19,403 bases of DNA from a virus (Duplodnaviria; Heunggongvirae; Uroviricota; Caudoviricetes). Positions 1 to 19,302 of this stretch are shown one piece after another. The stretch's first letter is position 1, and each line of letters starts with the position of its first letter. The stretch covers positions 1-19,403 of the IMG/VR virus record IMGVR_UViG_2778261570_000017. One strand, 5' to 3'. The position numbers were made by a program, and so were the translations under genes. The notes under the pieces were generated by a model, which worked only from the letters and a program-made list of their open reading frames with translations, did not search any database and had not been told where the DNA came from.

Positions 1-2
1 TT

Positions 3-65
3 ACAGGTATGGAACGCATTAAGGCAGTACGTGAAATTATTCGTGAACGGGGAAAAGCAAAATGA
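3..65 (+). CDS. 3' end of an upstream CDS (reading frame 3, ...TGMERIKAVREIIRERGKAK*), partial; possibly the primase partner of the downstream Rep
   Basis: Open frame runs in from the window edge and stops at TGA 63-65, overlapping the ATG at 62 (ATGA coupling) of the next gene. Identity not determinable from 21 residues. Confidence 0.4.
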   Translation, partial: TGMERIKAVREIIRERGKAK

Positions 66-1468
66 AACTGGCACCGAACGTAAAACTGTTACCGAAAGAT
101 AAACACACTGAGGCGGTTATTTTTGCGGGTGATAATGCTCACTCCTTTGCAGAACATTACATGATTGCACAGGCCAAAAAAGCAGGCGATCCCATCCCTC
201 CGGTTTACCTGGGCCGTTATCAGTTAAGCGAACTGGACAATTTACAGATTGTTGATGAAGGACGATACAGAGCAAAGGTCATACGCGCCGGAAACCTGGA
301 CGATATGCAGATGCTGACCATTGCCACCAAACTGGCGATCGCAGGTGTCCAGGAAGCACGGTTACTTTCAGAGAATTTCGAACTGCTGGAGGACTGGAGC
401 GAGCAACTACCGCGGCTTAAAGAAACCTGGGAACGCGGGGAAAGTCTGGTCATGAATGGTGGAAAGCGAAAAATCACACTTCCCATCTCATGGGGTTCTG
501 AGGGATTCGACGCGCAGCAAAGCTACGTAATTAAGGGGCTTATTCCGGCTGAGTCATTATGCAGCACCTACGGGGCCAGCGGTTCTTATAAATCGTTCCT
601 GGCTATTTCCTGGTCGTGCCATGTTGTCACAGGTATGGCATGGGGAGGCCGCAGGGTAAGTAAGGGCGCTGTTATCTATATCGCTGGCGAAGGCAGTATG
701 GGCGTAAAACGCCGCGTTAAGGCGTGGGAGATAACCCATGACAAGGTGGTTACGGATTTGTGCATCGTTAACGCGCCTGTTTTCCCTGCATCGCCTGACT
801 ATGTGGAGCAGGTTATCAGGACTGCCGGACTTGTTAAGAGCAGAACGGGCGAAAATGTGCGGCTGATTGTGATCGACACGCTGGCCCGTTGCTTTGGTGG
901 GAATGATGAAAATGATTCCCGTGATATGGGCGCATTTATCCAGGGGTGTGACGCGATAAAGCAGGCCACAGGGGCCACGGTACTGGTGGTTCACCATTCC
1001 GGCAAGGATGAAACAAAGGGGGCGCGAGGTTCCAGCGCATTCCGCGCTGCACTGGATGCAGAGTACCGAATCAGCCGGGAAAATTCAGACGTTACAGCAC
1101 TGGTGGCGGCGTGTACGAAGATGAAGGACGCAGAGGAGCCAAAAGAGAGTGCATACGATCTTAAAAGCGTGGAGGTGTTCACCGATACAGATGGCGAAGA
1201 GATTGTGTCCATGGTGGTGATTGACGTTCCCCGCGCCCCTGCTGAACTGGAGCGCATAGAGGAGGCCGGGAACAAGACGGAAAATCACACGGCTTTATGG
1301 GGTTGTATCCGGTCGCGTATACAGCATGGTGATAAATGTACGATCCCGCTGCTACGTGATGACATGAAAAAGCTGGGATATGACACAAAACACCTTAAAC
1401 GATGGTTAGCCAAACTGGAAAAAGACGGCGTGATTTGCGTCGATGGGGATGATGTTCACCCACTGTAA
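62..1468 (+). CDS. Replication ATPase/helicase, RecA-fold (RepA/AAA_25-like)
   Basis: 468-aa ORF with Walker A-like YGASGSYKS, Walker B-like hydrophobic stretch ending in Asp (RLIVIDTLARCF) and VLVVHHSGKD. Coupled to the upstream ORF and followed immediately by an iteron array. Confidence 0.6.
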   Translation: MKLAPNVKLLPKDKHTEAVIFAGDNAHSFAEHYMIAQAKKAGDPIPPVYLGRYQLSELDNLQIVDEGRYRAKVIRAGNLDDMQMLTIATKLAIAGVQEARLLSENFELLEDWSEQLPRLKETWERGESLVMNGGKRKITLPISWGSEGFDAQQSYVIKGLIPAESLCSTYGASGSYKSFLAISWSCHVVTGMAWGGRRVSKGAVIYIAGEGSMGVKRRVKAWEITHDKVVTDLCIVNAPVFPASPDYVEQVIRTAGLVKSRTGENVRLIVIDTLARCFGGNDENDSRDMGAFIQGCDAIKQATGATVLVVHHSGKDETKGARGSSAFRAALDAEYRISRENSDVTALVAACTKMKDAEEPKESAYDLKSVEVFTDTDGEEIVSMVVIDVPRAPAELERIEEAGNKTENHTALWGCIRSRIQHGDKCTIPLLRDDMKKLGYDTKHLKRWLAKLEKDGVICVDGDDVHPL

Positions 1469-1670
1469 AAAGTGGGCGTTAAAAGTGGGAATAGTGGGTA
1501 ATTTAACTGGAATTTAACAAAATCGCCCACTTTCCCACGTGTATACATCCCAAAAAGTGGGCACTAAAAAAATACTTATGAAACAGTACGATATAAAACC
1601 ACAAAATCCCTGGTGGGACGAAGTGGGAAACCATGAAAAGTGGGCAGAAAAAGTGGGCACAGGTGGGCGC
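1468..1670. repeat. Iteron array, (A)AGTGGG(C/A) repeated about 10 times; candidate replication origin
   Basis: AGTGGG at 1471, 1484, 1493, 1556, 1622, 1639, 1652; GGTGGG at 1612 and 1662; inverted copy CCCACT at 1526-1531. Lies directly 3' of the Rep gene. Confidence 0.6.
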
Positions 1671-1922
1671 ATGACAAGAAAAACCAGAGATAAGACAGCA
1701 CCAAAATATAAAGCGTTAGACATGACAGAGCACGCCTTAAAGGTGGCAATCAGAACGATAGACCGCCACGCCGGAGAAGGATACGCGAAAGCACATCCCG
1801 AACTGATAAGCGCATTCATGACCACGGCGGCGGCAAATTTTGCCACGCTGACAGAGCGGGAGATTGCCGAAGCGGAACAGGTGACAACCATCAACGTTAA
1901 AACCGGAGAACAGACAGCATGA
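1671..1922 (+). CDS. Small hypothetical protein (about 84 aa)
   Basis: The ORF track starts at 1539, but the N-terminal 44 codons are translated iteron repeats. The ATG at 1671 follows GGTGGGCGC. Stop TGA 1920-1922 overlaps the ATG of the next gene at 1919 (ATGA). Confidence 0.45.
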   Translation: MTRKTRDKTAPKYKALDMTEHALKVAIRTIDRHAGEGYAKAHPELISAFMTTAAANFATLTEREIAEAEQVTTINVKTGEQTA

Positions 1923-2341
1923 CAGCACAGATAGCGGCTTACGGGCGGCTGGTGGCTGACCCGCAGTTAAAGACCACCAGCAAGGGGACACAAATGGCGA
2001 TGGCGAGTATGGCGGTTCCCCTGCCGTGCAGCCAGGCAGATGACGGAACGGCGACGATGTGGTTATCCGTCCTGGCGTTTGGCAGACAGGCCGACGCACT
2101 GGCCAGACACCACAAAGGCGAACTGGTGAGCGTGGCGGGTAACATGCAGGTAAGCCAGTGGACAGGCCAGAACGGCGAAACGCGGCAGGGCTGGCAGGTT
2201 ATCGCAGACAGCGTAATCAGTGCGCGAACGGCGCGACCGGGCGGCAAAAAAGGTCAACAGGGCCAGGCTACTGACGCGCTGAACAGGGCAAAACAACAGG
2301 CGGGAAATGATGATCCGTACGGGGATAACATACCGTTTTAA
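1919..2341 (+). CDS. ssb: Single-stranded DNA-binding protein (SSB)
   Basis: 140 aa, OB-fold-like N-terminal region, Gly/Gln-rich linker and acidic C-terminal tail ...DDPYGDNIPF, matching the canonical SSB C-terminus D-D-D-I-P-F. Confidence 0.8.
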   Translation: MTAQIAAYGRLVADPQLKTTSKGTQMAMASMAVPLPCSQADDGTATMWLSVLAFGRQADALARHHKGELVSVAGNMQVSQWTGQNGETRQGWQVIADSVISARTARPGGKKGQQGQATDALNRAKQQAGNDDPYGDNIPF

Positions 2342-2358
2342 GAAACGAGTGACAGAAG

Positions 2359-2380
2359 CCGGGATTTTTCCCGGTTTTTT
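2359..2380 (+). terminator. Rho-independent terminator-like hairpin after ssb
   Basis: CCGGGA (2359-2364) / TCCCGG (2369-2374), 4-nt loop, followed by TTTTTT (2375-2380). Confidence 0.6.
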
Positions 2381-2455
2381 ACGGGTCCTCCCGGTGGAGT
2401 GGCCTTGCCACGGGGCGGGAGCGTCGCGGAAAACGGCTGATTTTTGAATTTTCAT
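2378..2455 (+). other. cos-like site copy 1 (cosQ-like TTTACGGGTCCT, 35-nt spacer, cosN-like 12-mer GGGCGGGAGCGT at 2413-2424)
   Basis: Recalled lambda cos junction is TTTACGGGTCCTTTCCGGTGATCCGACAGGTTACG|GGGCGGCGACCT|CGCGGG. Here the first 12 nt match exactly, the 35-nt distance to the GC-rich 12-mer is the same, and the ACG / CGCGG flanks match. Repeated at 4898-4978. Confidence 0.6.
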
Positions 2456-2609
2456 GGGACACCACCACATCAATTAACATGTTGAAAAATAAAATAAAAA
2501 TTGATTTTCACCTGTCCAATTTTGCTTTTTGTGGGACATCTGACCAGTTTGCAATTAATTGAAATATATAAATAAATCAGTTTTTCACCTGCCTGGTGGA
2601 GTTGCCTGT
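2456..2609. repeat. Two degenerate tandem units of about 77 bp, AT-rich, each with GGGACA..., a CAAT..ATTG-type palindrome and TTTTCACCTG(T/C)C
   Basis: Unit A 2456-2532, unit B 2533-2609. GGGACAcc at 2456 and GGGACAtc at 2533. TTTTCACCTGTCC 2505-2517 and TTTTCACCTGCC 2582-2593. Palindromes CAATTAACATGTTG 2471-2484 and CAATTAATTG 2552-2561. Confidence 0.5.
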
Positions 2610-2641
2610 ATCAAAACGTGTTCAGATGGCGGGATATTTAT

Positions 2642-2664
2642 GCCGGATTTTTTCCGGCTTTTTT
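2642..2664 (+). terminator. Rho-independent terminator-like hairpin
   Basis: GCCGGA (2642-2647) / TCCGGC (2653-2658), followed by TTTTTT (2659-2664). Nearly the same hairpin as at 2359-2380. Confidence 0.55.
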
Positions 2665-2765
2665 GCGTCTGAATCTGATTAATCTATTTTTATGATAGAA
2701 ATATGTTTATCTACCACTTTTATCGATCAATAATGATGCCCGTTAATCAAAACGGAGGCGGATTT

Positions 2766-2960
2766 ATGCCAGAGAACAACACCAGAAAGCCGGGTAAAAG
2801 TGCCACTGTGCACATAGACACCGGAACGATGGAGAAGATCGAACGCTATCAGCAGTTCATCAAAGAGAATCACCCGGGTATGCCAGTACCCACGAAAGGA
2901 CAAATCACACGCAGCGCGGTTGAATACTGGTACAAGGCAACGTTAGGAGCCTGGCTATGA
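2766..2960 (+). CDS. Small protein (about 64 aa), possible ribbon-helix-helix DNA-binding fold
   Basis: GGAGG at 2754-2758 lies 7 nt before the ATG at 2766; the ORF-track start at 2703 has no RBS. Predicted strand-helix-helix pattern (ATVHID / TMEKIERYQQFIKEN / GQITRSAVEYWYKA). Stop TGA 2958-2960 overlaps the ATG at 2957 of the capsid gene. Confidence 0.45.
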   Translation: MPENNTRKPGKSATVHIDTGTMEKIERYQQFIKENHPGMPVPTKGQITRSAVEYWYKATLGAWL

Positions 2961-4873
2961 AAACATGGTTTTCCATTAAGGCGGCGGATGTGCGTGGAAC
3001 GGTGGAAATATCCATCTATGAAGAAATTGGCGGCTTCGGTATTACCGCGAAGCAGTTCTCGGAAGATCTGAAAGCCCTTGGCGATGTTTCACATATCGAC
3101 CTACGGATCCATTCGCCTGGCGGTGACGTGTTTGAAGGCATCGCCATCTATAACCTGCTACGGAATCATCCGGCAGACATTACGGTTTATATCGATGGCG
3201 TGGCGGCTTCAATGGCTTCGGTCGTCGCAATGGCTGGCGATCGCGTTGTTATGCCGGAGAACGCCATGATGATGATCCATAAGCCGTGGGGGATCTCTGG
3301 CGGAAATGCTGGCGATATGCGTGATTATGCTGATTTGCTGGATAAAGTGGAAACCGTGTTAATCCCTGCTTATGCCAGAAAAACAGGCAAATCAGCACAG
3401 GAAATTGCCGCCATGCTGGAAGATGAAACCTGGATGGACGGGAAAGAATGCCTTAAGCACGGTTTTGCTGATGAATTGTTGCCATCTGTCAGAGCAATGG
3501 CGCGAATTGAATCGAAACGCACAGGAGATTTTTTACATATGCCGGAAACCATTAAGGGAATGATTACCCCGCCGAAATCACAGGCAAAAAACACCATTAC
3601 AGGCGACCAGGAGCGCATTAACGGCATTAAAGAAATTTTTAGCGTGTTCGGCAACCAGTACGACGGGATCAAAATGTCGTGCCTTGAAGATGCATCCTGT
3701 ACGCTGGAAATGGCCCGGGAACGTCTGCTTAACGAAATGGGTAAAAACCACACACCAACAAATAAAAATATCCCGTCTCATATTTATGCCGGAAACGGGA
3801 ACATAACAGGCGATGCGATTCGCCAGGGCCTTTATTCCCGTCTTGGGTATGAGCGTCCTGAGCGTGGCAATCCTTACGCGATGATGAGTCTTTTTGAAAT
3901 GGCCCAGGCGTCACTGGTTGATCGTGGTATCAGTGTTGGCGGTTTTTTAAATCGCTCGCAGGTCGTTAATGCAGCTTTTACACACAGCAGCAGTGATTTT
4001 TCTCATATTCTGGCTGGCGGTGCTGAAAAATCAGTGCTGAAAGGCTGGCAGGACAGCGGCGAAACGTTCCAGAAGTGGACGCGTAGCGGATCGCTTTCAA
4101 ACTTTCACGAGGCAAAACGCGTTGGCCTGAATGGTTTTTCAAAACTGGATAAAGTGCCGGAAGGCGCGGAATATAAATACATTACTACCAGTGACAAGGG
4201 CGTACCTATTGCGCTGGCCACATACGGGAATATTTTTTCTGTTACCCGCCAGGCCATTATTAACGATGACCTGACCCAGTTAACTACAATCCCCATGGCG
4301 ATGGGGCGTGCAGCCGCCAGAACAGTAGGTAATCTGGTGTATCTCCTGTTAACCGGCAATGGCAAATTCACGGATGGTAAGGCGCTATTCCATGCCGATC
4401 ATAAAAATCTTATTGCGAAGGATATGGACATGGAGGGGCTTAACGAAGCCCGTAAGCTGATGCGCCTCCAGGAGGACGCTAACGGTGATTCGCTGAATAT
4501 TACCCCCGCATTTGTCCTGGTCCCCGCCGCGCTGGAGTCTGCCGCACATCGCGCCATTCTGTCATCGTCATCACTCTTTCAGGTTGATGGTGAGGGCACT
4601 ATCAATCAGAACCCCGGCATCATTAACGTGGTGAAAGATATGGCTGAGGTTATTGTTGAGCCACGTCTTGATAAGAACAATAACAAGGAGTGGTATGTAG
4701 CCGCAGCGAAAGGGATGGACACGATAGAGGTCGCTTATCTTGATGGTATTGATACGCCATATCTTGAGGAGCAGGAGGGCTTTACTGTTGATGGTGTCGC
4801 CTGGAAGGTGCGCATAGATGCAGGTGTTGCGGCCCTCGATTATCGTGGACTACTGAAATCGAGTGGAGCATGA
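2957..4873 (+). CDS. Prohead protease (ClpP/S14-like) fused to HK97-fold major capsid protein, copy 1
   Basis: 638 aa. N-terminal about 190 aa carries protease motifs (HSPGGDVFEG, DGVAASMAS, MMIHKPWG); the C-terminal region is colinear and homologous along its full length with the second copy at 8636-10696. AGGAG RBS at 2944-2948. Confidence 0.85.
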   Translation: MKTWFSIKAADVRGTVEISIYEEIGGFGITAKQFSEDLKALGDVSHIDLRIHSPGGDVFEGIAIYNLLRNHPADITVYIDGVAASMASVVAMAGDRVVMPENAMMMIHKPWGISGGNAGDMRDYADLLDKVETVLIPAYARKTGKSAQEIAAMLEDETWMDGKECLKHGFADELLPSVRAMARIESKRTGDFLHMPETIKGMITPPKSQAKNTITGDQERINGIKEIFSVFGNQYDGIKMSCLEDASCTLEMARERLLNEMGKNHTPTNKNIPSHIYAGNGNITGDAIRQGLYSRLGYERPERGNPYAMMSLFEMAQASLVDRGISVGGFLNRSQVVNAAFTHSSSDFSHILAGGAEKSVLKGWQDSGETFQKWTRSGSLSNFHEAKRVGLNGFSKLDKVPEGAEYKYITTSDKGVPIALATYGNIFSVTRQAIINDDLTQLTTIPMAMGRAAARTVGNLVYLLLTGNGKFTDGKALFHADHKNLIAKDMDMEGLNEARKLMRLQEDANGDSLNITPAFVLVPAALESAAHRAILSSSSLFQVDGEGTINQNPGIINVVKDMAEVIVEPRLDKNNNKEWYVAAAKGMDTIEVAYLDGIDTPYLEEQEGFTVDGVAWKVRIDAGVAALDYRGLLKSSGA

Positions 4874-4880
4874 CAACAAG

Positions 4881-4903
4881 GGCGGCGATAGCCGCCTTTT
4901 TTT
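4881..4903 (+). terminator. Rho-independent terminator-like hairpin after capsid copy 1
   Basis: GGCGGC (4881-4886), loop GATA, GCCGCC (4891-4896), then TTTTTTT (4897-4903). Confidence 0.6.
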
Positions 4904-4978
4904 ACGGGTCCTCCCGGTGGAGTGGCCTTGCCACGGGGCGGGAGCGGCGCGGAAAAAGGCTAGTTTTTGCATTTTCAT
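4898..4978 (+). other. cos-like site copy 2 (cosQ-like TTTACGGGTCCT at 4901-4912, cosN-like GGGCGGGAGCGG at 4936-4947)
   Basis: Direct repeat of 2378-2455 with about 5 mismatches. Sits where lambda cos sits, roughly 190 bp upstream of the Nu1-like TerS start. Confidence 0.65.
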
Positions 4979-5132
4979 TCATCATCATCATCTTTTCAAT
5001 GCATTGAATTTAAACGAATTTTATTTTTAGTATGTTAATTTTGCGTGTTTTTTGGTCAACATATAACGCACTTTATAACGCTTTTTGAGAAGGTGTTCGC
5101 AAGATGCATGTTTAAAACATTCTGGAGCGGGT
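4979..5132. promoter_or_regulatory. cosB-like AT-rich region between cosN-like site and TerS (candidate TerS/IHF binding sites)
   Basis: Perfect palindrome CAATGCATTG at 4997-5006, about 50 bp after the cosN-like 12-mer (the same family of palindrome sits 47 and 128 bp after the cos copy 1 12-mer). Also tandem ATAACGC and near-palindrome ATGTTTAAAACAT. Confidence 0.4.
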
Positions 5133-5618
5133 ATGGATCGAGAACTGAAAAATCTGATGCTGAACATTAACCAACTGGCGGCGATAGCGGGAATATGTCG
5201 TCAGACTGCGGCGGCAAGGCTGAAAAACATCCAGCCAGCCGGAGGACATGACAAGCTGAAACTCTATCGGGTGACTGACATTCTGACCTGTTTTCTTGAT
5301 CTTCCCGTTCCGGCATCACTGGAAGAAATGGAGCCACATGACCGTAAGGCCTGGTATCAGTCTGAACGTGAGCGCCTCAAGTTCGAACAGGAAACGGCGC
5401 AACTCATACCCGCCGATGATGTGCGAAAAGAGATGGCTATATGGGCGGAAATCGTAAGCGAGGAACTGGCAAAACTCCCCAGTATTCTGGCACGTGATGC
5501 GGGGCTTAAACCGATGGCAGTAAACAGAGTGCAGTCAATTATTGACGATTTGTGTAATCAGATTATCAGCCGGATGGTAAAAAATGACGCAGTGAATGAG
5601 GATGTAAAACAGGCATGA
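5133..5618 (+). CDS. Terminase small subunit (lambda Nu1-like)
   Basis: GGAG 5 nt upstream of the ATG at 5133. N-terminal LNINQLAAIAGICRQTAAARL resembles the Nu1 winged-HTH region (recalled lambda Nu1 MEVNKKQLADIFGASIRTIQNW). Position immediately downstream of cos. Confidence 0.7.
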   Translation: MDRELKNLMLNINQLAAIAGICRQTAAARLKNIQPAGGHDKLKLYRVTDILTCFLDLPVPASLEEMEPHDRKAWYQSERERLKFEQETAQLIPADDVRKEMAIWAEIVSEELAKLPSILARDAGLKPMAVNRVQSIIDDLCNQIISRMVKNDAVNEDVKQA

Positions 5619-5864
5619 TAATGACTGGCGCCGTGATCCCCCGTGCTACCGGAATCAGACTACCAGAAGGCAAACAGAAGACCACGCAGTCGGGCAGCGT
5701 CATCGTGTTAATGCATGGCGGCGTATTCTGCTTTTAATTAATATTGCTACCTTTTTTCTTTTTTTATCGCTTAGGCAGGTACTAAATCTTGGACTATGTG
5801 AATGGGGTTACAACTAAATAGTACCTTATAATCATTTAGTTACCTTTTATTTACTTCTTCCTGG

Positions 5865-6977
5865 ATGGAAGGCCCCGCTGCGGCATATCAGACGCTGTCC
5901 CAGCTGGTCTATAAGTTGCTGACCGCCGAACAGGAATACGAGTCGACCGGAAGCGAAGAAACGCTCAAGACAGTCATCAACACCGACTGGGGATTACCTT
6001 ATCTTCCCCGGGCCAGCATGGAGCAACGAAAAAGCGAACTGCTTGAGCAGCGGGCAGAGCCTGTTCCTCCCCGAAGTGTGCCGGATGGCGTTAATTTCCT
6101 TGCGGCGACAGTGGATGTGCAGGCGGGACGTCATCGCCGTTTTGTGGTTCAGGTAACGGGCTATGGCAGTCGTGGCGAACGCTGGATAGTTGATCGTTAC
6201 AACATCACGCAGTCGCTGCGTTGTGACAATAACGGAGAAAGCCTGCGTATTGACCCTGCCGGTTATCCGGAGGACTGGGATGTTCTGCTGACGGATGTTT
6301 TTCATAAAGGCTGGCCGCTGGCTTCTGATCCTTCTCAACAAATGCGACTGATGGCAATGGCGGTGGACTCCGGCGGTGAAGACGGGGTCACTGATAATGC
6401 CTATAAATTCTGGCGTCGTTGCCGTCGTGATGGCCTTGGTAAACGTATTTACCTGTTTAAGGGCGACAGTATCCGTCGCGCAAAACTGATAACCCGTACA
6501 TTTCCGGATAACACCGGACGAACGGGGCGACGGGCGCAGGCTTCGGGTGATGTTCCACTCTGGCTCCTTCAGACGGATGCCCTGAAAGACCGGGTGAATA
6601 ACGCGTTATGGCGTGACTCGCCAGGTCCCGGCTATGTGCATTTTCCTGACTGGCTGGGGAGCTGGTTTTACGACGAACTGACGTATGAAGAGCGGAGCAG
6701 TGACGGAAAGTGGAGTAAGCCGGGTCGCGGTGCCAACGAAGCCTTTGACCTGATGGTGTATGCCGAGGCGCTGGTTATTCTGCATGGGTACGAGAAAATT
6801 CAGTGGCCGGATGCGCCGGAATGGGCATGCAGGGAAACCTGGCTGGAATACGTCAGTGACAACGCTGAGCAGGCTGTTCTGCCGGAACCAGTCTCTCTGC
6901 CTGCCAGAAAAAAGAAACGAAAAAAAGTGACGCCCGATGAGGATAACCCCTGGGTGACTTCCGGAGGATGGTTATGA
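5865..6977 (+). CDS. Terminase large subunit (lambda gpA-like), C-terminal nuclease domain only; N-terminally truncated, possibly a pseudogene
   Basis: 370 aa, colinear with roughly the C-terminal half of lambda gpA as recalled (ATVDVQAGRHRRFVVQVTGYGSRGERWIVDR vs AGIDSQLDRYEMRVWGWGPGEESWLIDR; ANEAFDLMVYAEAL vs RNEALDCFVYALAA). No Walker A segment, and only 246 bp lie between TerS and this ORF. No clear RBS. Confidence 0.75.
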   Translation: MEGPAAAYQTLSQLVYKLLTAEQEYESTGSEETLKTVINTDWGLPYLPRASMEQRKSELLEQRAEPVPPRSVPDGVNFLAATVDVQAGRHRRFVVQVTGYGSRGERWIVDRYNITQSLRCDNNGESLRIDPAGYPEDWDVLLTDVFHKGWPLASDPSQQMRLMAMAVDSGGEDGVTDNAYKFWRRCRRDGLGKRIYLFKGDSIRRAKLITRTFPDNTGRTGRRAQASGDVPLWLLQTDALKDRVNNALWRDSPGPGYVHFPDWLGSWFYDELTYEERSSDGKWSKPGRGANEAFDLMVYAEALVILHGYEKIQWPDAPEWACRETWLEYVSDNAEQAVLPEPVSLPARKKKRKKVTPDEDNPWVTSGGWL

Positions 6978-7186
6978 ATCAGAATGATATTGAAGCCATG
7001 ATCCAGCGTTATATCGATGCGGAAATGGCAGTGCTGGACGGAAAATCCGTCACCTTTAATGGTCAGCAAATGACCATGGAAAATCTGTCCGAGATCCGCC
7101 GGGGACGTCAGGAGTGGGAGCGGCGTCTTGCTGCCCTGACTGCGCGGCGACGGGGGAACCCGGGATATAAACTGGTGAGGTTCTGA
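6974..7186 (+). CDS. Head-tail joining protein (lambda gpW-like)
   Basis: About 70 aa. ATG 6974 overlaps the TerL stop (ATGA); stop overlaps the portal ATG at 7186 (TGATG). C-terminus ...RRRGNPGYKLVRF resembles lambda W ...RRRGPAGFYV. Confidence 0.6.
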   Translation: MNQNDIEAMIQRYIDAEMAVLDGKSVTFNGQQMTMENLSEIRRGRQEWERRLAALTARRRGNPGYKLVRF

Positions 7187-8691
7187 TGGCAATTCTGGAT
7201 GATGTGATTGGTGTTTTTTCTCCAGGCTGGAAAGCGGCGAGGTTGCGCTCAAGAGCGTTAATCCGCGCTTATGAGGCTGTGAAACCCACACGCACACACA
7301 AAGCCCGACGGGAAAACCGTTCTGCCGACCAGCTCAGTAAGTACGGGGCGGTTTCCCTGCGGGAGCAGGCCCGTTTTCTGGATATCAATCATGACCTCGT
7401 AATCGGCGTTTTCGACAAGCTTGAGGAGCGGGTGATTGGTGCAAAGGGGATCATTGTTGAACCCCAGCCATTACTGAAAAACGGTGGTGTGGCTACAGAG
7501 CTGGCAATGATTATCCGTCGTTTGTGGGCGGAATGGTCTGTCAGTCCGGATGTGACCGGGCAGCATACGCGCCCCATGCTCGAACGTCTGCTGTTGCGTA
7601 CCTGGTTACGTGATGGAGAAGTGTTTGCCCAGATGGTCAGAGGCGCAGGTGCCGGGCTGGCACGGACTGCCGGTGTGCCTTTCTGGCTTGAGGCAATGGA
7701 GCCTGATTTTGTGCCCATGCTCAGTGATGAGTCTGCGGGAATGAATCAGGGAGTTTTTCTGGATAAATGGGGCAGGCCGAAAAAATACCTGGTTTATAAA
7801 AATTATCCGGTTCCCGGGCGACAGAGCGAAACCAAAGAGATCGCCGCTGAAAATATGGTGCATCTGAAGTTTACCCGCCGGCTGCACCAGACGCGTGGTA
7901 CATCCATGTTGTCGGGTGTGCTGATACGGATCAGTGCACTTAAGGAGTACGAGGATTCTGAGTTGGTTGCAGCGCGTGTTGCTGCGGCTCTGGGGTTATA
8001 TATTCGTAAAGGAGATGGACAGGATTATGAGGAACCTGTGACAAATAAAGATAATGATCGGGAACTGCATATCACTCCCGGCATTATTTATGACGATCTG
8101 CGTAAGGGGGAAGATATTGGCATGGTCAAATCTGATCGGCCTAACCCTAATCTGGAAACTTTTCGTAATGGTCAGTTGCGGGCTATGGCGGCGGGCACTC
8201 GTCTGAGCTTTTCCAGTGCAGCACGTAACTATAACGGTACCTACAGTTCCCAGCGACAGGAGCTGGTTGAGTCCACCGATGGCTATCTGATCCTGCAGGA
8301 CTGTTTTATTGGTGCTGTAACCCGTCCGGTGTACCGGGCATGGCTGAATATGGTGATTGCCGCGGGGTTGCTGAAAATTCCGTCGGATGTGGATATGAAA
8401 ACGTTATATAACGCAACATATTCTGGCCCTGTGATGCCGTGGATCGACCCAGTCAAGGAGGCTGAAGCCTGGAAAATTCAGATCCGGGGTGGTGCGGCGA
8501 CAGAATCAGACTGGGTGCGCGCCAGTGGTCGTAATCCGGATGACGTCAAACGTCGGCGCAAAGCTGAGATTGATGAAAACCGCAGGCTGGAACTGGTATT
8601 TGATACCGATCCGGCAAGTGATAAAGGAGGTGGTAATGCTGAAACAGAACGCGTGGTTCCGCGGCGAACCGAAGGCCAGCCTGAAGAATAA
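7186..8691 (+). CDS. Portal protein
   Basis: 501 aa, in the canonical position between W and the protease-capsid gene and translationally coupled to W. Confidence 0.7.
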   Translation: MAILDDVIGVFSPGWKAARLRSRALIRAYEAVKPTRTHKARRENRSADQLSKYGAVSLREQARFLDINHDLVIGVFDKLEERVIGAKGIIVEPQPLLKNGGVATELAMIIRRLWAEWSVSPDVTGQHTRPMLERLLLRTWLRDGEVFAQMVRGAGAGLARTAGVPFWLEAMEPDFVPMLSDESAGMNQGVFLDKWGRPKKYLVYKNYPVPGRQSETKEIAAENMVHLKFTRRLHQTRGTSMLSGVLIRISALKEYEDSELVAARVAAALGLYIRKGDGQDYEEPVTNKDNDRELHITPGIIYDDLRKGEDIGMVKSDRPNPNLETFRNGQLRAMAAGTRLSFSSAARNYNGTYSSQRQELVESTDGYLILQDCFIGAVTRPVYRAWLNMVIAAGLLKIPSDVDMKTLYNATYSGPVMPWIDPVKEAEAWKIQIRGGAATESDWVRASGRNPDDVKRRRKAEIDENRRLELVFDTDPASDKGGGNAETERVVPRRTEGQPEE

Positions 8692-10696
8692 TTCCTGGTT
8701 CAGAATGAAGGCGGGTCATAAAAGTGATGCGGATATTTATATCTATGACGAGATTGGTTTTTGGGGTGTTACGGCGAAACAGTTTGTCAGTGATCTGAAT
8801 GCGCTGGGCAATATTACCCACATTAATCTCCATATCAATTCACCGGGTGGCGATGTCTTTGAAGGCATCGCCATTTTTAATGCGCTGAAAAATCACGGAG
8901 CGTCCATCACTGTTTATGTGGATGGCGTTGCCGCATCCATGGCATCGGTCATTGCAATGGTGGGGGATCCCGTCATCATGCCGGAAAATGCATTCATGAT
9001 GATACATAAACCATGGGGAGTGAGTGGTGGCGATGCGGATGATATGCGCGATTATGCTGACCTGCTTGATAAAGTTGAGGCGGTCCTGTTGCCTGCTTAT
9101 GCGCAAAAAACCGGAAAAACGACAGATGAAATTGCTGCCATGCTGAAAGATGAAACCTGGATGTCCGGAGCTGAATGTCTGGCACACGGATTTGCTGACC
9201 AGGTGACACCGAAAGTTAAGGCAATGGCATGCATTCAGTCAAAACGAACAGAGGAATTTAAAAAAATGCCAGAATCCATCCGAAATATGATTATTCCGCC
9301 ACGCAACAGTGCAACGCGTGAACCTGAAAACAAAAATACTGCATCTCAGACACAGGAGCAGACTACGGCTCAGGTTGTCACAACCGCGACCATTGCGAAT
9401 GCGTCTTCCGCAGATGAAAGCAGTATCCGTGCACAGGTGCTGGCTGAGCAAAAAGCACGCGTGAGTGGTATTAATGACCTGTTTGGTATGTTTGGCGGGC
9501 GTTATCAGACATTGCAGGCCAGTTGCCTTTCCGATCCGGAGTGCTCGCTTGAGCAGGCCCGTGAGAAATTACTTAACGAAATGGGTAAGGAATTTTCACC
9601 ATCAAATAAAAACACCCCGTCCCATATTTATGCCGGCAACGGTAATTTTGTGGGAGACGGGATCCGACAGGCGCTGATGGCGCGCGCCGGATTTGCTGAG
9701 CGTGAGCAGGATAACGTCTATAACGGGATGACCCTGCGTGAATATGCCCGAATGTCACTGACAGAGCGTGGTATTGGGGTTTCCGGGTATAACCCGATGC
9801 AGATGGTGGGGGCAGCGTTCACCCACAGCACGTCTGACTTCGGTAATATTCTGTTAGATGTTGCGAACAAAGCCATTCTGCAGGGCTGGGAAGAAGCGCC
9901 TGAAACCTACGAACAGTGGACCCGAAAAGGTCAGCTGTCTGATTTTAAAATCGCTCATCGTGTGGGTATGGGGGGCTTCAGTTCTCTGCGTCAGGTGCGT
10001 GAGGGGGCGGAATATAAGTACGTCACCACCGGAGATAAACAGGCCACGATTGCACTGGCGACCTATGGCGAACTGTTCAGCATCACCCGCCAGGCCATTA
10101 TCAACGATGATCTGAATATGCTGACCGATGTTCCGATGAAACTGGGGCGTGCGGCGAAATCCACGATTGCCGATCTGGTTTATGCCATTCTGACATCTAA
10201 CCCGAAAATCTCCACGGATAATGTGAGCCTGTTCGATAAAGCGAAACATGCAAACGTACTGGAGAGCGCAGCAATGGACGTGGCATCGCTGGATAAAGCC
10301 CGCCAGTTGATGCGCGTTCAGAAAGAAGGTGAGCGTCATCTGAATATTCGCCCTGCGTTCGTACTGGTACCGACGGCGATGGAGTCTGTTGCTAACCAGG
10401 TTATTCGCTCCTCAAGTGTCAAGGGGGCTGACATTAACGCCGGTATTATTAACCCGGTGAAAGATTTTGCGACCGTTATTGCAGAGCCGCGCCTTGATGA
10501 TAACAGCCAGACCACCTTTTATCTGGCTGCGGCGAAAGGTACGGATACCATCGAAGTGGCTTATCTCAATGGGGTGGATACGCCATATATTGATCAGATG
10601 GAGGGCTTCAGCGTGGACGGCGTGACAACGAAAGTGCGTATTGACGCCGGTGTTGCACCAGTTGATCACCGCGGTCTGGTGAAATGTACGGCGTAA
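8636..10696 (+). CDS. Prohead protease (ClpP/S14-like) fused to HK97-fold major capsid protein, copy 2 (canonical head position)
   Basis: Strong RBS AAGGAGGTGG at 8624-8633 before the ATG at 8636; the ORF-track start at 8489 lies inside the portal gene. Same architecture as copy 1, plus a T/Q/A-rich low-complexity insertion of about 45 aa. Confidence 0.85.
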   Translation: MLKQNAWFRGEPKASLKNNSWFRMKAGHKSDADIYIYDEIGFWGVTAKQFVSDLNALGNITHINLHINSPGGDVFEGIAIFNALKNHGASITVYVDGVAASMASVIAMVGDPVIMPENAFMMIHKPWGVSGGDADDMRDYADLLDKVEAVLLPAYAQKTGKTTDEIAAMLKDETWMSGAECLAHGFADQVTPKVKAMACIQSKRTEEFKKMPESIRNMIIPPRNSATREPENKNTASQTQEQTTAQVVTTATIANASSADESSIRAQVLAEQKARVSGINDLFGMFGGRYQTLQASCLSDPECSLEQAREKLLNEMGKEFSPSNKNTPSHIYAGNGNFVGDGIRQALMARAGFAEREQDNVYNGMTLREYARMSLTERGIGVSGYNPMQMVGAAFTHSTSDFGNILLDVANKAILQGWEEAPETYEQWTRKGQLSDFKIAHRVGMGGFSSLRQVREGAEYKYVTTGDKQATIALATYGELFSITRQAIINDDLNMLTDVPMKLGRAAKSTIADLVYAILTSNPKISTDNVSLFDKAKHANVLESAAMDVASLDKARQLMRVQKEGERHLNIRPAFVLVPTAMESVANQVIRSSSVKGADINAGIINPVKDFATVIAEPRLDDNSQTTFYLAAAKGTDTIEVAYLNGVDTPYIDQMEGFSVDGVTTKVRIDAGVAPVDHRGLVKCTA

Positions 10697-10719
10697 ACGT
10701 CGCAGACAACAACGCTGAT

Positions 10720-10772
10720 GGCCCGTAAGGGCTTTTTTTGTACCTGAAATCAGCCCCGTTCAGGGGGCTTTG
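10720..10772 (+). terminator. Two consecutive hairpins after capsid copy 2 (attenuator/terminator-like)
   Basis: GCCC-GTAA-GGGC followed by TTTTTTT (10720-10739), then AGCCCC / GGGGCT hairpin (10752-10769). Confidence 0.45.
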
Positions 10773-10783
10773 CGGAGGCAGTT

Positions 10784-11107
10784 ATGGCAAAGAATTTTGT
10801 GGAAGACGGGAAAACGGTGGAGATTGTCGCTGGCGCAAATATCAGTAGCGGAGAGCTGGTACAGGTGGGCGATATTTTTGCTGTGGCACTGACCGATATT
10901 GCAAAAGGCGAAATTGGGGACGGCATGACTGAAGGTGTATTTATGCTGCCGAAACTGAAAACGGATGATATGAAAACCGGTAAGAAGGTTTATCTGAAGT
11001 CCGGAAAAGTTCAGCTGACTAACAGCGGCTCTGATCCGCTGGTCGGGGTTGTCTGGGCAGATGCCGGAACCAGTGCAGAAGAAGTGCCGGTAAAACTCAA
11101 TGTCTGA
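10784..11107 (+). CDS. Small head protein, DUF2190-like (possible decoration or head-completion protein)
   Basis: 107 aa, GGAGG at 10774-10778, located directly after the major capsid gene. Family assignment is from recollection. Confidence 0.45.
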   Translation: MAKNFVEDGKTVEIVAGANISSGELVQVGDIFAVALTDIAKGEIGDGMTEGVFMLPKLKTDDMKTGKKVYLKSGKVQLTNSGSDPLVGVVWADAGTSAEEVPVKLNV

Positions 11108-11375
11108 TCCCTTTTCCCGGCTGGCAGCGCGTATGGATGCTATCACGGTCAGAAAGATGGGAAAGACAGCCTCGATTAATGATGTCGATATGACCGTGAT
11201 CCCGGGAGAAACACTGGCAGAGCTGAATGCTCTGTCCGGACCTGCGGTCTCTCTGGTTGTGTTTTCTTCGGGATACCGCCCACGGCGCGGGGATCGCGTT
11301 GTTTATGACGGACAACAATGGACGGTCACACGGCATGAACGCTTTAACGGTAAGCCAATGATCTTTATTGAGTAA
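11100..11375 (+). CDS. Head-tail connector / head completion protein (lambda gpFII-like)
   Basis: 91 aa. ATG overlaps the preceding stop. C-terminal RRGDRVVYDGQQWTVTRHE resembles lambda FII RRGDTLTIGEENFWVDRVS. Confidence 0.5.
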   Translation: MSDPFSRLAARMDAITVRKMGKTASINDVDMTVIPGETLAELNALSGPAVSLVVFSSGYRPRRGDRVVYDGQQWTVTRHERFNGKPMIFIE

Positions 11376-11386
11376 AGAGGTGTGGG

Positions 11387-11965
11387 ATGAAGGGGCTTGA
11401 GAATGCCATCCGCAATCTGAACAGCCTTGATACCCGTATGGTGCCACAGGCCAGCGCATGGGCGATAAACCGTGTGGCACAGAAAGCGGTCTCGGTTGCC
11501 ACCCGGCAGGTTGCCGGGAATACCGTTGCGGGAGATAACCAGGTGAAAGGGATCCCCCTGAAACTGGTACGTCAGCGTGTCCGGGTGTTTAAAGCCAGTC
11601 CGTCAGGAAAAATGACGGCCAGGATCCGCGTTAACCGGGGCAATCTGCCCGCCATTAAGCTGGGAACAGCCCGGGTCAGACTGGCCCGGCGTGGTGGAAA
11701 ACTGCAGTACCGTGGCAGTGTGCTGAAGGTGGGTAAATATCTTTTCCGGGATGCGTTTATTCAGCAACTGGCGAATGGTCGCTGGCATGTGATGCGGCGT
11801 ATTGATGGCAAAAATCGTTACCCCATTGATGTGGTGAAAATCCCGCTGTCCGGACCGCTGACACAGGCATTTGAAGATGCCCGCGACCGCATCATTGCTG
11901 CGGAAATGCCGAAACAGCTGGGGTATGCACTGAAACAACAACTGAGGTTATGGCTGACCCGATGA
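11387..11965 (+). CDS. Tail completion protein (lambda gpZ-like)
   Basis: 192 aa, the same length as lambda Z; position between FII-like and U; RBS AGAGGTG upstream. Confidence 0.6.
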   Translation: MKGLENAIRNLNSLDTRMVPQASAWAINRVAQKAVSVATRQVAGNTVAGDNQVKGIPLKLVRQRVRVFKASPSGKMTARIRVNRGNLPAIKLGTARVRLARRGGKLQYRGSVLKVGKYLFRDAFIQQLANGRWHVMRRIDGKNRYPIDVVKIPLSGPLTQAFEDARDRIIAAEMPKQLGYALKQQLRLWLTR

Positions 11966-12363
11966 ACCGACATACACAAATCCGCCAGGCCGTACTGGCA
12001 CGCCTTCGGGAACAGTGTGGAGACAGCGCCACGTTTTTTGACGGGCTTCCGGCATTTATTGATGCGCAGGAACTGCCTGCCGTGGCGGTGTGGCTGAGTG
12101 ATGCTCAGTACACCGGAAAAATGACGGATGAAGATGACTGGCAGGCTGTTCTGCATATTGCCGTCTTCATCCGGGCACAGGCACCGGATTCAGAGCTGGA
12201 TATGTGGATGGAGAGCACCATTTTTCCTGCCCTGAATGATATACCGGCACTTTCCGGACTCATCGACACCCTGATCCCACTCGGTTTTAACTATCAACGT
12301 GATAATGAGATGGCCACCTGGGCGATGGCGGAAATCACGTACCAGATCACGTACACGAATTAA
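11962..12363 (+). CDS. Tail terminator protein (lambda gpU-like)
   Basis: Strong similarity to recalled lambda U (TFFDGLPAFIDAQELPAVAVWLSDAQYTGKMTDEDDWQAVLHIAVF vs TFFDGRPAVFDEADFPAVAVYLTGAEYTGEELDSDTWQAELHIEVF). ATG 11962 overlaps the Z stop (ATGA); the alternative ATG at 11950 is less likely. Confidence 0.85.
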   Translation: MNRHTQIRQAVLARLREQCGDSATFFDGLPAFIDAQELPAVAVWLSDAQYTGKMTDEDDWQAVLHIAVFIRAQAPDSELDMWMESTIFPALNDIPALSGLIDTLIPLGFNYQRDNEMATWAMAEITYQITYTN

Positions 12364-12373
12364 GGAGGTGGCA

Positions 12374-13117
12374 ATGACCACACCAAATCCACTGGCAAAG
12401 ACGAAAGGTGCGGGGACGACGTTCTGGATGTATACCGGCAACGGCGATGCGTTTGCGAACCCTTTGTCGGACACTGACTGGCTGCGTCTTGCGATGGTGA
12501 AGGATCTGCAGCCTGGCGAAATGACCGCTGATGCAGAAGATGACACTTATCTCGATGATGAAGATGCAGACTGGAAAACGACAACCCAGGGGCAGAAATC
12601 CGTCGGTGATACTTCGGCGACGCTGGCCTGGCGTCCGGGTGACAGCGGGCAGAAAAAACTGGTTCAGTTGTTCGACTCCGGTGAAGTCTGCGCGTTTCGT
12701 ATCAAATATCCCAACGGCACTGTTGATGTTTTCCGCGGCTGGCTGAGCTCACTGGGTAAAACCATTGCCTCAAAAGACGTGATGACCCGCACTGTGAAAA
12801 TCAGCGGTGTGGGGCGTCCGTATCTGGCAGAGGAAGGCACTGAAACCGTGAGCGTTACCGGGCTGACGGTGGCACCGGCATCTGCCAGTGTAAAAGTGGG
12901 AGCAACCACCACGCTGACCTTTACAGTAAAACCTGACGGAGCCAGTGACAAAGCGATCAGTGTGCATTCGACAGATCCACAGACTGCCACGGTGACCCTG
13001 AACGGGCTTGTGGCCACGGTGAAAGGCGTGAAGCAGGGCAGTGTCAGCATTGTGGGCATGACTTCTGACGGCGATTTTGTGGCCGTGGCTGCGGTGGCTG
13101 TCAGCGCCGCAGGTTAA
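12374..13117 (+). CDS. Major tail protein (lambda gpV-like) with C-terminal Ig-like domain
   Basis: RBS AAGGAGGTG before the ATG at 12374. N-terminus MTTPNPLAKTKGAGTTFWMYTGNGDAFANPLSD matches lambda V [33 protein letters not shown]. The ORF-track start at 12299 lies inside U. Confidence 0.9.
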   Translation: MTTPNPLAKTKGAGTTFWMYTGNGDAFANPLSDTDWLRLAMVKDLQPGEMTADAEDDTYLDDEDADWKTTTQGQKSVGDTSATLAWRPGDSGQKKLVQLFDSGEVCAFRIKYPNGTVDVFRGWLSSLGKTIASKDVMTRTVKISGVGRPYLAEEGTETVSVTGLTVAPASASVKVGATTTLTFTVKPDGASDKAISVHSTDPQTATVTLNGLVATVKGVKQGSVSIVGMTSDGDFVAVAAVAVSAAG

Positions 13118-13137
13118 CAGGACGATACTCATCATTT

Positions 13138-13161
13138 GCCCCGGTTATCCGGGGCTTTTTT
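13138..13161 (+). terminator. Strong hairpin plus T-run between V and G (terminator/attenuator)
   Basis: GCCCCGG (13138-13144), loop TTAT, CCGGGGC (13149-13155), then TTTTTT (13156-13161). Confidence 0.65.
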
Positions 13162-13177
13162 GCAAGTGGAGAACATG

Positions 13178-13564
13178 ATGTTTCTGAAACAGGGCACGTT
13201 TAATTATGAAAAGCAGTCCGTGGTGCTCAGTGAGCTGTCCGGGCTGCAGAGAATTGAATATCTGGCGTTTGTTCAGCAGCGAACGGCAAAGTTTGATGCC
13301 GGGGAGGGAGAACTGCCGGAGGCTGAACGACAGATTGCTTTTCTGCGGATGGGGATGGATATCAATGCCTGGCTGGTTTCCCGCTCACTGTGGAATGCGG
13401 ATCAGTCTAAGGATGTAGAGACGCTTTGCGCATCCGTTATTACAACATGGTCGTATGATGCCCTGGGTGCGGGGGCGGAGATGGTTCTGTCGCTGAGCGG
13501 TATGGGGGCCATTGATAATGCCGGGGATGATGAGCATGAGGTGCTGACGCCGGAAAAGTCCTGA
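13178..13564 (+). CDS. Tail assembly chaperone (lambda gpG-like)
   Basis: MFLKQGTFNYEKQSVVLSELSGLQRIEYLAF resembles lambda G MFLKTESFEHNGVTVTLSELSALQRIEHLAL. GGAG 6 nt before the ATG at 13178. The ORF-track start at 13136 runs through the terminator hairpin. Confidence 0.85.
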   Translation: MFLKQGTFNYEKQSVVLSELSGLQRIEYLAFVQQRTAKFDAGEGELPEAERQIAFLRMGMDINAWLVSRSLWNADQSKDVETLCASVITTWSYDALGAGAEMVLSLSGMGAIDNAGDDEHEVLTPEKS

Positions 13565-13902
13565 CGCGGGAAATGCAGTTTGTCATGCGGCTTGCCCGGG
13601 AGTTCCGGCGGGCAGACTGGCGGCGGATGCTGTCGGAAATGTCAGCCACTGAGCTTGGTGAGTGGGGCGATTATTTCCGGATGCAGAGCTTCAGTGATGT
13701 GTGGATGGATGCGCAGTTTGCCTCGCTGAAGGCATTGATCGTGAGAATGGTGTCCGGCAGCAGTGATGCTGCGGTGGCTGATTTCAGCCTTTTACCGGAA
13801 GAGAACGGGATACCGGAGCGAACGGACGAAGAACTGATGCATCTTGGGGAAGGTATTTCCGGAGGTGTGCGTTATGGACCAGATAGCCAACCTGGTCATT
13901 GA
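13540..13902 (+). CDS. gpT-like segment, expressed as the G-T fusion by -1 frameshift (-1 frame relative to G)
   Basis: Open frame in the -1 frame relative to G overlapping the G 3' end, typical of the conserved G/G-T tail chaperone pair. Confidence 0.6.
   Translation, partial: GADAGKVLTREMQFVMRLAREFRRADWRRMLSEMSATELGEWGDYFRMQSFSDVWMDAQFASLKALIVRMVSGSSDAAVADFSLLPEENGIPERTDEELMHLGEGISGGVRYGPDSQPGH
13552..13558 (+). promoter_or_regulatory. Candidate -1 programmed frameshift site GGAAAAG producing the G-T fusion
   Basis: The -1 frame is open only from 13540 and G stops at 13562-13564, so the shift must occur in 13540-13561. The only slippery candidate there is G-GAA-AAG (lambda uses G-GGA-AAG). 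Confidence 0.5.
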
Positions 13903-16900: not shown

Positions 16901-16939
16901 TCCCGTGATGGTGGTCAGTTAAGCGGAGCGTATCGGTAA
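13874..16939 (+). CDS. Tail tape measure protein (lambda gpH-like)
   Basis: About 1021 aa, coiled-coil-rich. N-terminus MDQIANLVIDLGIDAAEF vs lambda H ...VGDLVVDLSLDAARF; C-terminus INNDGTNGQIGPAALKVVYD...RDGG matches lambda H. GGAGGTG RBS at 13861-13867. Confidence 0.9.
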   Translation: MDQIANLVIDLGIDAAEFKNEIPRIKNLLNGAASDAERSSARMQRFMERQTQAARQTTQAASSAATAASVHAQTVEKNAQVHERMAREVEKTRQRMEALSQKMHEEQAQAMALAEAQDKAAAAFYRQIDSVKQASAGLQELQRIQQQIRQARNSGGIGQQDYLALISDVTAKTRVLTQAEEEATRQKVAFIRQLKEQATRQNLSSSELLRAKAAQLGVSSAAEVYIRKMEQAGKATHSLGLKSAAARQEIGVLIGELARGNLGALRGSGITLANRAGWIDTLMSPKGMMLGGVIGGIAAAVYGLGKAWYDGQKEGEEFNRQLSLTGHYAGVTAGQLWTLSRAISGNGITQHAAAGALAQVVGSGAFRGNDIGMVARAAAQMERSVGQSVSDTISQFKRLKDDPVNAAKALDNELHFLTATQLEQIRVLGEQGRSSDAARIAMSALAEETGRRTADIDNNLNALGSTLQTLSDWWKQFWDAAMNIGREDSLDAQIATLQEKVSRAKRLPWTASSSQVEYDQQRLNELQEKKRQKDLQDAKEQAERNYQEQQKRRNAENAALNRMNETEAARHQREIARINAMQYADQAVRDAAIQRENERYEKALASGKKKTRETRNDEATRLLLQYSQQQAQVEGQIAAARQSAGIATERMTEAHKQLLALQQRISDLDGKKLTADEKSVLARKDELIQALTLLDVKQQELQKQTALNELKKKTIQLTSQLAEEERAQRQQHDLDIATVGMGDQQRQRYQVQLSLRQKYQQQLEQLRRDSEQKGTYNTDDYRKAEQALTESLNRQLNENRRYWQQLEVVQGNWKNGVLRAFQDFTVDADNTAGTAEQVFSSAFSNMGNGLATFVTTGKLNFKSFTSSVLSDMAKILAQATMMKSIKGIGSVLGFDLSSLSLNANGGIYQSADLSRYSGTVVNRPTFFAFAKGAGVMGEAGPEAILPLRRGADGKLGVVADIGGSGMVMFAPQYNIEINNDGTNGQIGPAALKVVYDLGKKAAADFMQQQSRDGGQLSGAYR

Positions 16940-17268: not shown

Positions 17269-17277
17269 GAGGCTCTG

Positions 17278-17976: not shown

Positions 17977-17980
17977 ACCC

Positions 17981-19263: not shown

Positions 19264-19282
19264 TGAAAAATGTTTTATGTGA

Positions 19283-19302
19283 AACCGCCTGCGGGCGGTT
19301 TT
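19283..19302 (+). terminator. Hairpin between I and J (terminator/attenuator-like)
   Basis: AACCGCC (19283-19289), loop TGCG, GGCGGTT (19294-19300), followed by TT. Confidence 0.4.

Follow-up and report, generated by a model that had tools for sequence, protein, structure and literature searches.

The window analysed here is a 19,403-nt stretch of viral DNA (Duplodnaviria; Heunggongvirae; Uroviricota; Caudoviricetes), positions 1 to 19,403 of the IMG/VR record IMGVR_UViG_2778261570_000017. It contains two open reading frames (ORFs), at 2957-4873 (copy 1) and 8636-10696 (copy 2), each of which encodes a ClpP-like prohead protease fused to an HK97-type major capsid protein (ClpP-MCP); the two are co-oriented and lie 3.7 kb apart (Table 1). 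Both ORFs are present as described in a first-pass annotation of the window, and the copies are, as described there, colinear yet substantially diverged. The two fusions are 56-60% identical, the BLASTP alignment runs through both proteins over their whole length (56% identity in 677 columns, 752 bits, E = 0), and the single large gap in the alignment corresponds to a T/Q/A-rich insert that occurs in copy 2 alone. A CLP_protease domain is detected in both proteins (Pfam; E 3e-35 for copy 1 and 3e-36 for copy 2), as is an HK97-type Phage_capsid_4 domain (Pfam; E 3e-53 for copy 1 and 1e-54 for copy 2). Solved ClpP structures match the N-terminal part of copy 1 (E 3e-17), and the protease active-site motifs containing Ser (ASMAS) and His (MIHKPWG) are kept in 14 of 14 aligned proteins. 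Copy 2 is located in the head operon, between the portal and head-decoration genes, which also agrees with the annotation. The annotation further regarded the copies as paralogues of one phage, with copy 1 outside the head operon; this point has to be revised, as copy 1 belongs to a separate integrative element that lies within the large terminase gene (terL) of a helper prophage. With a probability of about 0.75, copy 1 is the capsid-morphogenesis gene of a phage-inducible chromosomal island (PICI) that is embedded, co-oriented, inside the gpA-type terL of its helper, and copy 2 is the capsid gene of that helper.

From position 5868 rightward, the window is a lambdoid prophage in which the nuclease half of a gpA-type terL, the portal gene, copy 2 and lambda-like tail genes follow on the same strand. 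The nuclease-only terL fragment is preceded by an attachment core, CTGGATG (attR; 5861-5867), which together with the gene order gives the layout of a helper-embedded satellite, and the ATPase part of terL is found nowhere in the window. A megablast search with the left 8.7 kb of the window against 5,426 complete Escherichia coli genomes divides this region into two units. In EC42405 (L003) and B1-56 (L004), the island is nested inside terL of a lambdoid prophage, and the order is prophage small terminase gene (terS), terL N-fragment, integrase gene (int), helix-turn-helix (HTH) gene, BRO-N, Icd-like, DUF4222 and RepA or primase on the left, followed by the single-stranded DNA-binding protein (SSB) gene, a small ORF, ClpP-MCP, DUF1441, terL C-fragment, portal, a second ClpP-MCP and tail genes on the right. 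The terL C-fragments of these two prophages are annotated 'missing N-terminus' and the N-fragments 'missing C-terminus'. The CTGGATG core is common to both junctions (14631-14637 and 25334-25340 in EC42405) and delimits islands of 10,703 bp in EC42405 and 10,828 bp in B1-56.

When the terL N-fragment of EC42405 is joined in silico via the core to the C-fragment of the window, an uninterrupted ORF of 699 aa results. Phages HannyBb, Tritos, cdtI and mEp460, whose terL is intact, have the peptide at this junction as one contiguous stretch (86-94% identity), and the integration core coincides with the boundary between the ATPase and nuclease domains of gpA-family terL. The same attR/terL junction is present in 84 of the 5,426 genomes, including O157:H7, O121 and O103:H2 strains, and an assembly artefact, which the first-pass annotation had named as a finding that would overturn its view, is therefore excluded. 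With the island embedded, the terL N-fragment upstream of the window would end ...TTCTGGATG. The listed ORF for the C-fragment starts at an ATG inside the att core and, at 370 aa, spans the whole nuclease domain; it is probably not translated, because no Shine-Dalgarno-like sequence precedes this ATG. A free nuclease domain of TerL may be made in the unexcised state.

The island also occurs without a surrounding phage. In RM8082, EC-107 and Z1323CEC0009, a 97-99% identical stand-alone island is located between tRNA-Pro/yejM and yejO with no phage genes around it, and carries, in order, int, HTH, Icd-like, DUF4222, RepA or primase, SSB, small ORF, ClpP-MCP and DUF1441; the repeat of the tRNA 3' end did not serve to delimit these tRNA-Pro islands. 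A related island of ECONIH2 has cspD on one side and clpS on the other. The islands examined in Klebsiella, Serratia and Pectobacterium are 10-11 kb long and run int, primase, small ORF, ClpP-MCP; several of them adjoin fis. Two Klebsiella-type islands next to fis (L008 and L009) have, at the position of the E. coli terS (11186-13618), an 810-aa gene with TMP_2 and Tape_meas_lam_C domains, and this tape-measure-domain PICI has the same pair of small ORF and ClpP-MCP.

Copy 1 represents a capsid lineage specific to satellites. A search of 5.8 billion proteins yields homologues of 635-646 aa with 71-99% identity to copy 1, from sources that include Escherichia, Shigella, Klebsiella, Pectobacterium, Dickeya, Serratia, Citrobacter, Enterobacter and Yersinia; identity to copy 1 is 71-78% for the Klebsiella, Serratia and Pectobacterium homologues. 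The lineage is present in PICIs of at least four genera, and copy-1-type genes are found in 202 of the 5,426 E. coli genomes. As to the lineage check proposed in the first-pass annotation, the relatives of copy 1 are found in satellite islands only, and the closest match among 50,697 phage records is 57% identical. Copy 2, by comparison, is about 90% identical to the proteins of the isolated phages mEp460, Ayreon, Tritos and cdtI. Identities are 71-100% between satellite proteins and 91-100% between helper proteins, versus 56-61% between satellite and helper proteins. Two stretches of the helper proteins, an N-terminal extension of 17 residues and a low-complexity linker insert of 28-39 residues, are missing from the satellite lineage, and the lineage has 7-14 additional residues near position 540-552. 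Its capsid domain is its most constrained part (70% invariant among 11 satellites) and contains 72 of the 99 fixed differences between satellite and helper proteins; copy 1 and the helper protein are 59% identical in this domain and 70% in the protease domain, the most similar part. The ratio of nonsynonymous to synonymous substitution rates (dN/dS) is 0.07-0.13 within the satellite lineage, compared with 0.10 for the helper gene. Such strong purifying selection excludes the mosaic relic that the annotation had considered, and the pattern as a whole, as read from the sequences, is the signature of a specialised functional protein and of neither a relic nor a recent capture.

The gene content of positions 1-5867 is that of a satellite, and this part of the window is very probably the right part of a Gram-negative PICI-type element of about 10.7 kb. 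The SatelliteFinder model for PICIs has five core components, namely integrase, regulator (alpA), primase-replicase, capsid morphogenesis and small terminase, and full sets come mostly from E. coli (PMC10085698). The primase/replicase module, the capsid homologue and the small terminase homologue are found in the window, and the size is about 10 kb in relatives. The window itself starts inside the element: an integrase gene is seen in every related island examined, and the EC42405 integrase has no tblastn match in the window. In most of the related islands examined, the gene after int is of HTH or Phage_AlpA type; the Klebsiella fis islands L008 and L009 have no recorded HTH/AlpA family. The counterpart of the first gene of the window in 97%-identical islands is annotated 'helicase RepA family protein', and the iterons directly 3' of this gene are likely, by analogy, to be the satellite replication origin, a position that agrees with the PICI origin as described (PMC6092414). 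The DUF1441 gene falls within the island in stand-alone copies too. Its product, a homologue of the small terminase subunit (TerS), is 65% identical to the helper TerS of B1-56 and 32% identical to that of EC42405; it has no significant match among Protein Data Bank (PDB) sequences, is accordingly no sequence relative of the solved Rpp or lambda Nu1 structures, and is not classed as Rpp. The annotation had described copy 1 as lacking a portal or terminase of its own, which is right for the portal and the large terminase but overlooks this small terminase homologue in the same element. Portal, head-tail connector, terL and HNH genes are absent from 1-5860 and from the stand-alone relatives; other structural or lysis genes were likewise not found within 1-5860 (ORF list, Pfam and PHROGs). 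An Rfam scan of the whole window gives no family at gathering score, and no C4/isrK-type immunity RNA is seen in the part of the element that the window covers.

Parts of the island vary among relatives. Among islands with near-identical late regions, some have a RepA-family helicase (468 aa) in the replication zone and others a D5-type primase (about 600 aa) (loci compared with window 62-1468: L004 17836-19653, L005 7629-9434 and L007 7636-9390), which indicates module exchange in this zone. In most related islands, a 94-aa gene (phrog_1561) follows terS (17621-17905 in L001), and a short unrelated stretch with a 40-codon ORF takes its place in the window (5619-5740) and in EC42405; the right end of the island thus exists in two versions.

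Table 1. Features of the satellite and helper parts of the window, from left to right.
Feature	Position	Strand	Basis or remark
RepA-family helicase (AAA_25), satellite replication protein, 468 aa	62-1468	+	Pfam AAA_25 E 2e-42; phrog_2850 and primase/helicase PHROGs
Iterons, 3-4 AAAAGTGGGC-type repeats, 83-85 nt apart	1467-1662	no strand	Direct-repeat families D2 and D5
Small satellite ORF, 83 aa	1671-1922	+	phrog_1231; same place annotated in related island L001
Satellite SSB	1919-2341	+	Pfam SSB E 9e-16
Terminator-like hairpin and T-run after ssb, abutting cos1	2358-2380	+	Read from sequence; not in consensus scan
cos1: cosQ-like GGGTCCT (2383-2389), cosN-like GGGCGGGAGCGT (2413-2424), then class A cosB side	2375-2610	+	
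Terminator-like hairpin between cos1 and small ORF	2642-2664	+	Scan
Small ORF, 64 aa, stop overlapping the copy 1 start (ATGA)	2766-2960	+	phrog_4934 E 7e-39
Copy 1: satellite ClpP-like prohead protease/helical linker/HK97-type major capsid fusion, 638 aa	2957-4873	+	
Hairpin GGCGGCGATAGCCGCC and T-run after copy 1, abutting cos2	4881-4903	+	T-run read from sequence
cos2: cosQ-like (4906-4912), cosN-like GGGCGGGAGCGG (4936-4947), then class B cosB side	4898-5132	+	
DUF1441/phrog_141 small terminase homologue	5133-5618	+	Pfam DUF1441 E 4e-36; phrog_141 'terminase small subunit' E 9e-58
Right attachment arm, attR core CTGGATG at 5861-5867	5735-5867	+	attL/attR comparison in EC42405 (L003) and B1-56 (L004)
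Helper terL C-terminal (nuclease) fragment	5865-6977	+	Pfam GpA_nuclease only
Helper small head gene, 72 aa, between terL and portal	6968-7186	+	Position; weak DUF6148 match below Pfam cut-off
Helper portal protein, lambda family	7186-8691	+	Pfam Phage_portal_2 E 1e-80
Copy 2: helper ClpP-like protease/major capsid fusion, 686 aa	8636-10696	+	
Helper head decoration protein (DUF2190/phrog_122)	10784-11107	+	

The small ORF and copy 1 form a cos-flanked cassette, as had been proposed. They are flanked by an 81-nt direct repeat (2375-2455 and 4898-4978, 94% identical), both copies of which align with the joined ends of phage lambda, with a cosQ-like GGGTCCT and then a cosN-like 12-mer in the expected order, and also with the cos region that lies upstream of terS in the related helper prophages; on these alignments both are identified as lambda-type cos sites. 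cos2 lies directly upstream of the satellite terS. The cosB sides of the two sites fall into different classes: that of cos1 matches the cos of EC42405-type (L003) helpers at 128-161 of 170 positions and that of cos2 matches the cos of B1-56-type (L004) helpers at 131-153 of 170, compared with 107-117 of 170 between classes. For the window's own sites the values are 128 of 170 for cos1 with L003-type cos, as against 112-116 between classes, and 131 of 170 for cos2 with L004-type cos. Both classes are present in all satellites checked, and the TerS of EC42405-type helpers is a divergent protein of 175 aa. The presence of two cosB classes suggests the use of two terminase specificities. Why some PICIs carry two cos sites is a published open question, on which this two-class pattern touches.

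The terminators that had been noted around copy 1 correspond to three terminator-like hairpins (Table 1); the scan reports the palindromic stem of the one at 4881-4903 on the minus strand. The small upstream gene also exists, although its start is most likely at 2766, where GGAGG is located 7 nt upstream and the 64-aa length agrees with that annotated in relatives, rather than at 2703 as first given. In PICIs of Klebsiella, Serratia and Pectobacterium, this position is occupied by homologues with 58-62% identity, and the sequence of the product suggests a ribbon-helix-helix protein. In EC42405, this ORF is swapped for a 27%-identical variant, and the capsid gene there is 98% identical.

The embedded arrangement suggests how the element would be mobilised. 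Upon helper induction the satellite would be transcribed, and helper late read-through is possible because satellite and helper genes are co-oriented. Excision at CTGGATG would restore the 699-aa terL, and the satellite would replicate from its own origin. The satellite TerS homologue with helper TerL would then recognise the satellite cos, and the fused protease-scaffold-capsid polyprotein would assemble on the helper portal, alone or mixed with the helper capsid protein, yielding shells that would be finished with helper head-completion and tail proteins. Because portal, terL and connectors are absent from the element, it must use the portal, TerL and head-completion proteins of the helper. 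A more specific proposal, held tentatively and at somewhat less than even odds, is that through copy 1 the satellite obtains capsids fitted to its own needs, probably smaller ones, which this protein either forms or redirects. Small shells appear to fit the shorter linker and the large number of fixed differences in the shell domain. Among known satellites, the capsid homologue of SaPIbov5 redirects capsid size, and PmCI172, which has a capsid homologue, makes small heads (PMC6092414; 10.1101/2022.09.08.507074). A wider proposal is doubtful: that elements of this kind use a third packaging strategy, between those of classical PICIs and capsid-forming PICIs (cf-PICIs), in which shells specific to the satellite, probably of smaller size, would be built on the helper portal by the polyprotein together with a small DNA-binding protein coupled to it, the satellite's own TerS and the two cosB classes would serve two helper terminase specificities, and insertion into terL would block helper packaging until excision.

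Several points weigh against assigning copy 1 to capsid morphogenesis of an embedded PICI, or against small capsids as its product. The element is known here from its genes, from which expression, excision and particles are inferred, and its left end (attL, integrase and AlpA) lies upstream of the window and is known from relatives only. A sigma-70 promoter scan gives no convincing site upstream of the small ORF. The AlphaFold2 model of copy 1, built from a 19-sequence alignment, has a mean pLDDT of 53, with residues 453-638 below 50; all that is taken from the model is that the N-terminal domain is ClpP-like and the middle region helical. Four satellite copies (about 43 kb) fill a helper-sized head (phages of 42-47 kb), and by this arithmetic small capsids are not required. 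In EcCICFT073, the only E. coli PICI so tested, all packaged DNA is phage-sized, and the capsid homologue, a different, lambda E-type protein, can be deleted without relief of phage interference (PMC6092414).

The last of these results also bears on the alternative that copy 1 is mainly an interference factor, that is, a capsid look-alike that co-assembles or competes with the helper capsid protein and protease and lowers helper yield, and is not a building block of satellite shells. Classical PICIs do interfere with helper reproduction (PMC6092414, PMC6739421), mixed assembly is conceivable at the identities found between copy 1 and the helper protein (59% in the capsid domain and 70% in the protease domain), and the many fixed differences in the capsid domain would suit a poison subunit. 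This alternative is nevertheless considered unlikely, since interference was left unrelieved by deletion of the EcCICFT073 homologue (PMC6092414), and since a pure decoy would have no need for an intact protease active site and full linker maintained at dN/dS of about 0.1 across genera.

The alternative that copy 1 is a captured helper late gene, now a redundant or dispensable back-up, with the satellite packaged as multimers in ordinary helper heads, is judged quite improbable. It gains from the packaging of EcCICFT073 in phage-sized heads (PMC6092414) and from the closeness of 4 x 10.7 kb to the helper genome size, but such a gene would not be expected to belong to an old satellite-specific lineage (71-78% identity across genera, no phage above 57%), to be under purifying selection equal to that on the essential capsid gene of the helper (0.07-0.13 versus 0.10), or to be always paired with the same small ORF. 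Finally, the raw appearance of the window, with its two co-oriented genes 3.7 kb apart, is all that favours paralogues in a single phage (by ancient duplication or mosaic exchange) or an assembly artefact, and these are refuted by the exact att boundary with the split terL, by the island at other loci without surrounding phage and by the same junction in 84 complete genomes; recent tandem duplication, already denied in the first-pass annotation, was likewise considered and rejected. Copy 1 as the capsid-morphogenesis gene of a helper-embedded PICI is the preferred reading.

For prophage annotation, and for predicting which prophages are still able to produce particles, it matters that apparent duplications of late genes can mark a nested parasite and not phage paralogy. 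The class of satellite concerned is common: about 4% of complete E. coli genomes contain the capsid gene and 1.5% the terL-embedded form. Being strongly conserved, distinct from every phage capsid searched and only about 40% different from the helper protein, the copy 1 lineage would lend itself well to experiments on whether the capsid homologues of E. coli PICIs build capsids, reshape them or poison them.

Elements of this kind have been published already, as have their embedding, capsid genes and double cos sites, and the finding is real but largely ordinary. PICI-like satellites inside the late genes of lambdoid prophages were described by Tommasini, Mageeney and Williams in 2023 (PMC10111431; preprint 10.1101/2022.07.18.500453), who reported 491 helper-embedded PICIs (HE-PICIs); the 14 sites that these occupy lie in genes cognate to lambda A, B, C, E, V, T, H, L and J. 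For 11capE, excision is reported to come after helper replication. HE-PICIs disrupt the target gene without supplying a replacement sequence, and in an experiment with one capsid-gene HE-PICI, the composite excises and replicates and then the satellite excises; the capsid gene is the commonest late gene of Gram-negative PICIs (21 of 29 reference elements) and is not required for transfer (PMC10111431). The element described here resembles HE-PICIs in disrupting its target without replacement, in having its own capsid gene, in sharing cos with the helper and, as seen in relatives, in the succession of a BRO-N/Icd-like zone, a zone for replication and a late one. It differs in its target, which is a gpA-family terL with a CTGGATG core, whereas the genes that hold the published gene A sites are of the Terminase_1 family. 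The accessible portion of the HE-PICI attL/attR lists (PMC10111431 supplements) contains no site named after GpA and none of this element's att strings, and a search for later literature on HE-PICIs or terL-embedded satellites found none. The CTGGATG site in gpA-type terL is thus probably an uncatalogued helper-embedded site.

Among classical Gram-negative PICIs, EcCICFT073 is an example that shares with this element, as completed from its relatives, int, an AlpA-type regulator, a primase/replicase with a downstream origin, a capsid homologue, a packaging gene, two cos sites, already reported in EcCICFT073 as an E. coli PICI (PMC6092414, PMC6739421), and a size of about 10 kb (PMC6092414, PMC6739421, PMC10085698). 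EcCICFT073 differs in having a lambda E-type capsid gene with a D-type decoration gene, and Rpp instead of a TerS homologue, whereas this element has a ClpP-MCP fusion, no counterpart of the helper head decoration gene, and a DUF1441 TerS homologue without sequence match to solved structures. With cf-PICIs such as EcCIEDL933, it has in common a satellite-encoded capsid protein, maturation protease and small terminase; however, cf-PICIs have genes for portal, head-tail connectors, HNH and terL as well and depend on the helper for tails only (10.1101/2022.09.08.507074). Membership in the cf-PICIs was rejected, given that these genes are absent from the element, and the earlier suggestion of a satellite-type capsid gene beside a cos site is essentially right in that the lineage occurs only in PICI-like islands, but not in its extension to cf-PICIs. 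The Ccm protein of SaPIbov5 is, like copy 1, a satellite-encoded homologue of a helper HK97-type capsid protein in a cos-packaged island (10.1101/2022.09.08.507074, PMC6092414); it is not described there as a protease-capsid fusion, whereas copy 1 has a complete protease and a helical linker. The ClpP-MCP fusions of lambdoid phages (mEp460, Ayreon, Tritos, cdtI and Stx phages) have the same domain order and belong to the same family, of which copy 2 is a member at about 90% identity, whereas copy 1 is 56-57% identical to them, lacks their N-terminal extension and T/Q/A-rich insert, and carries the 7-14 extra residues of its own lineage.

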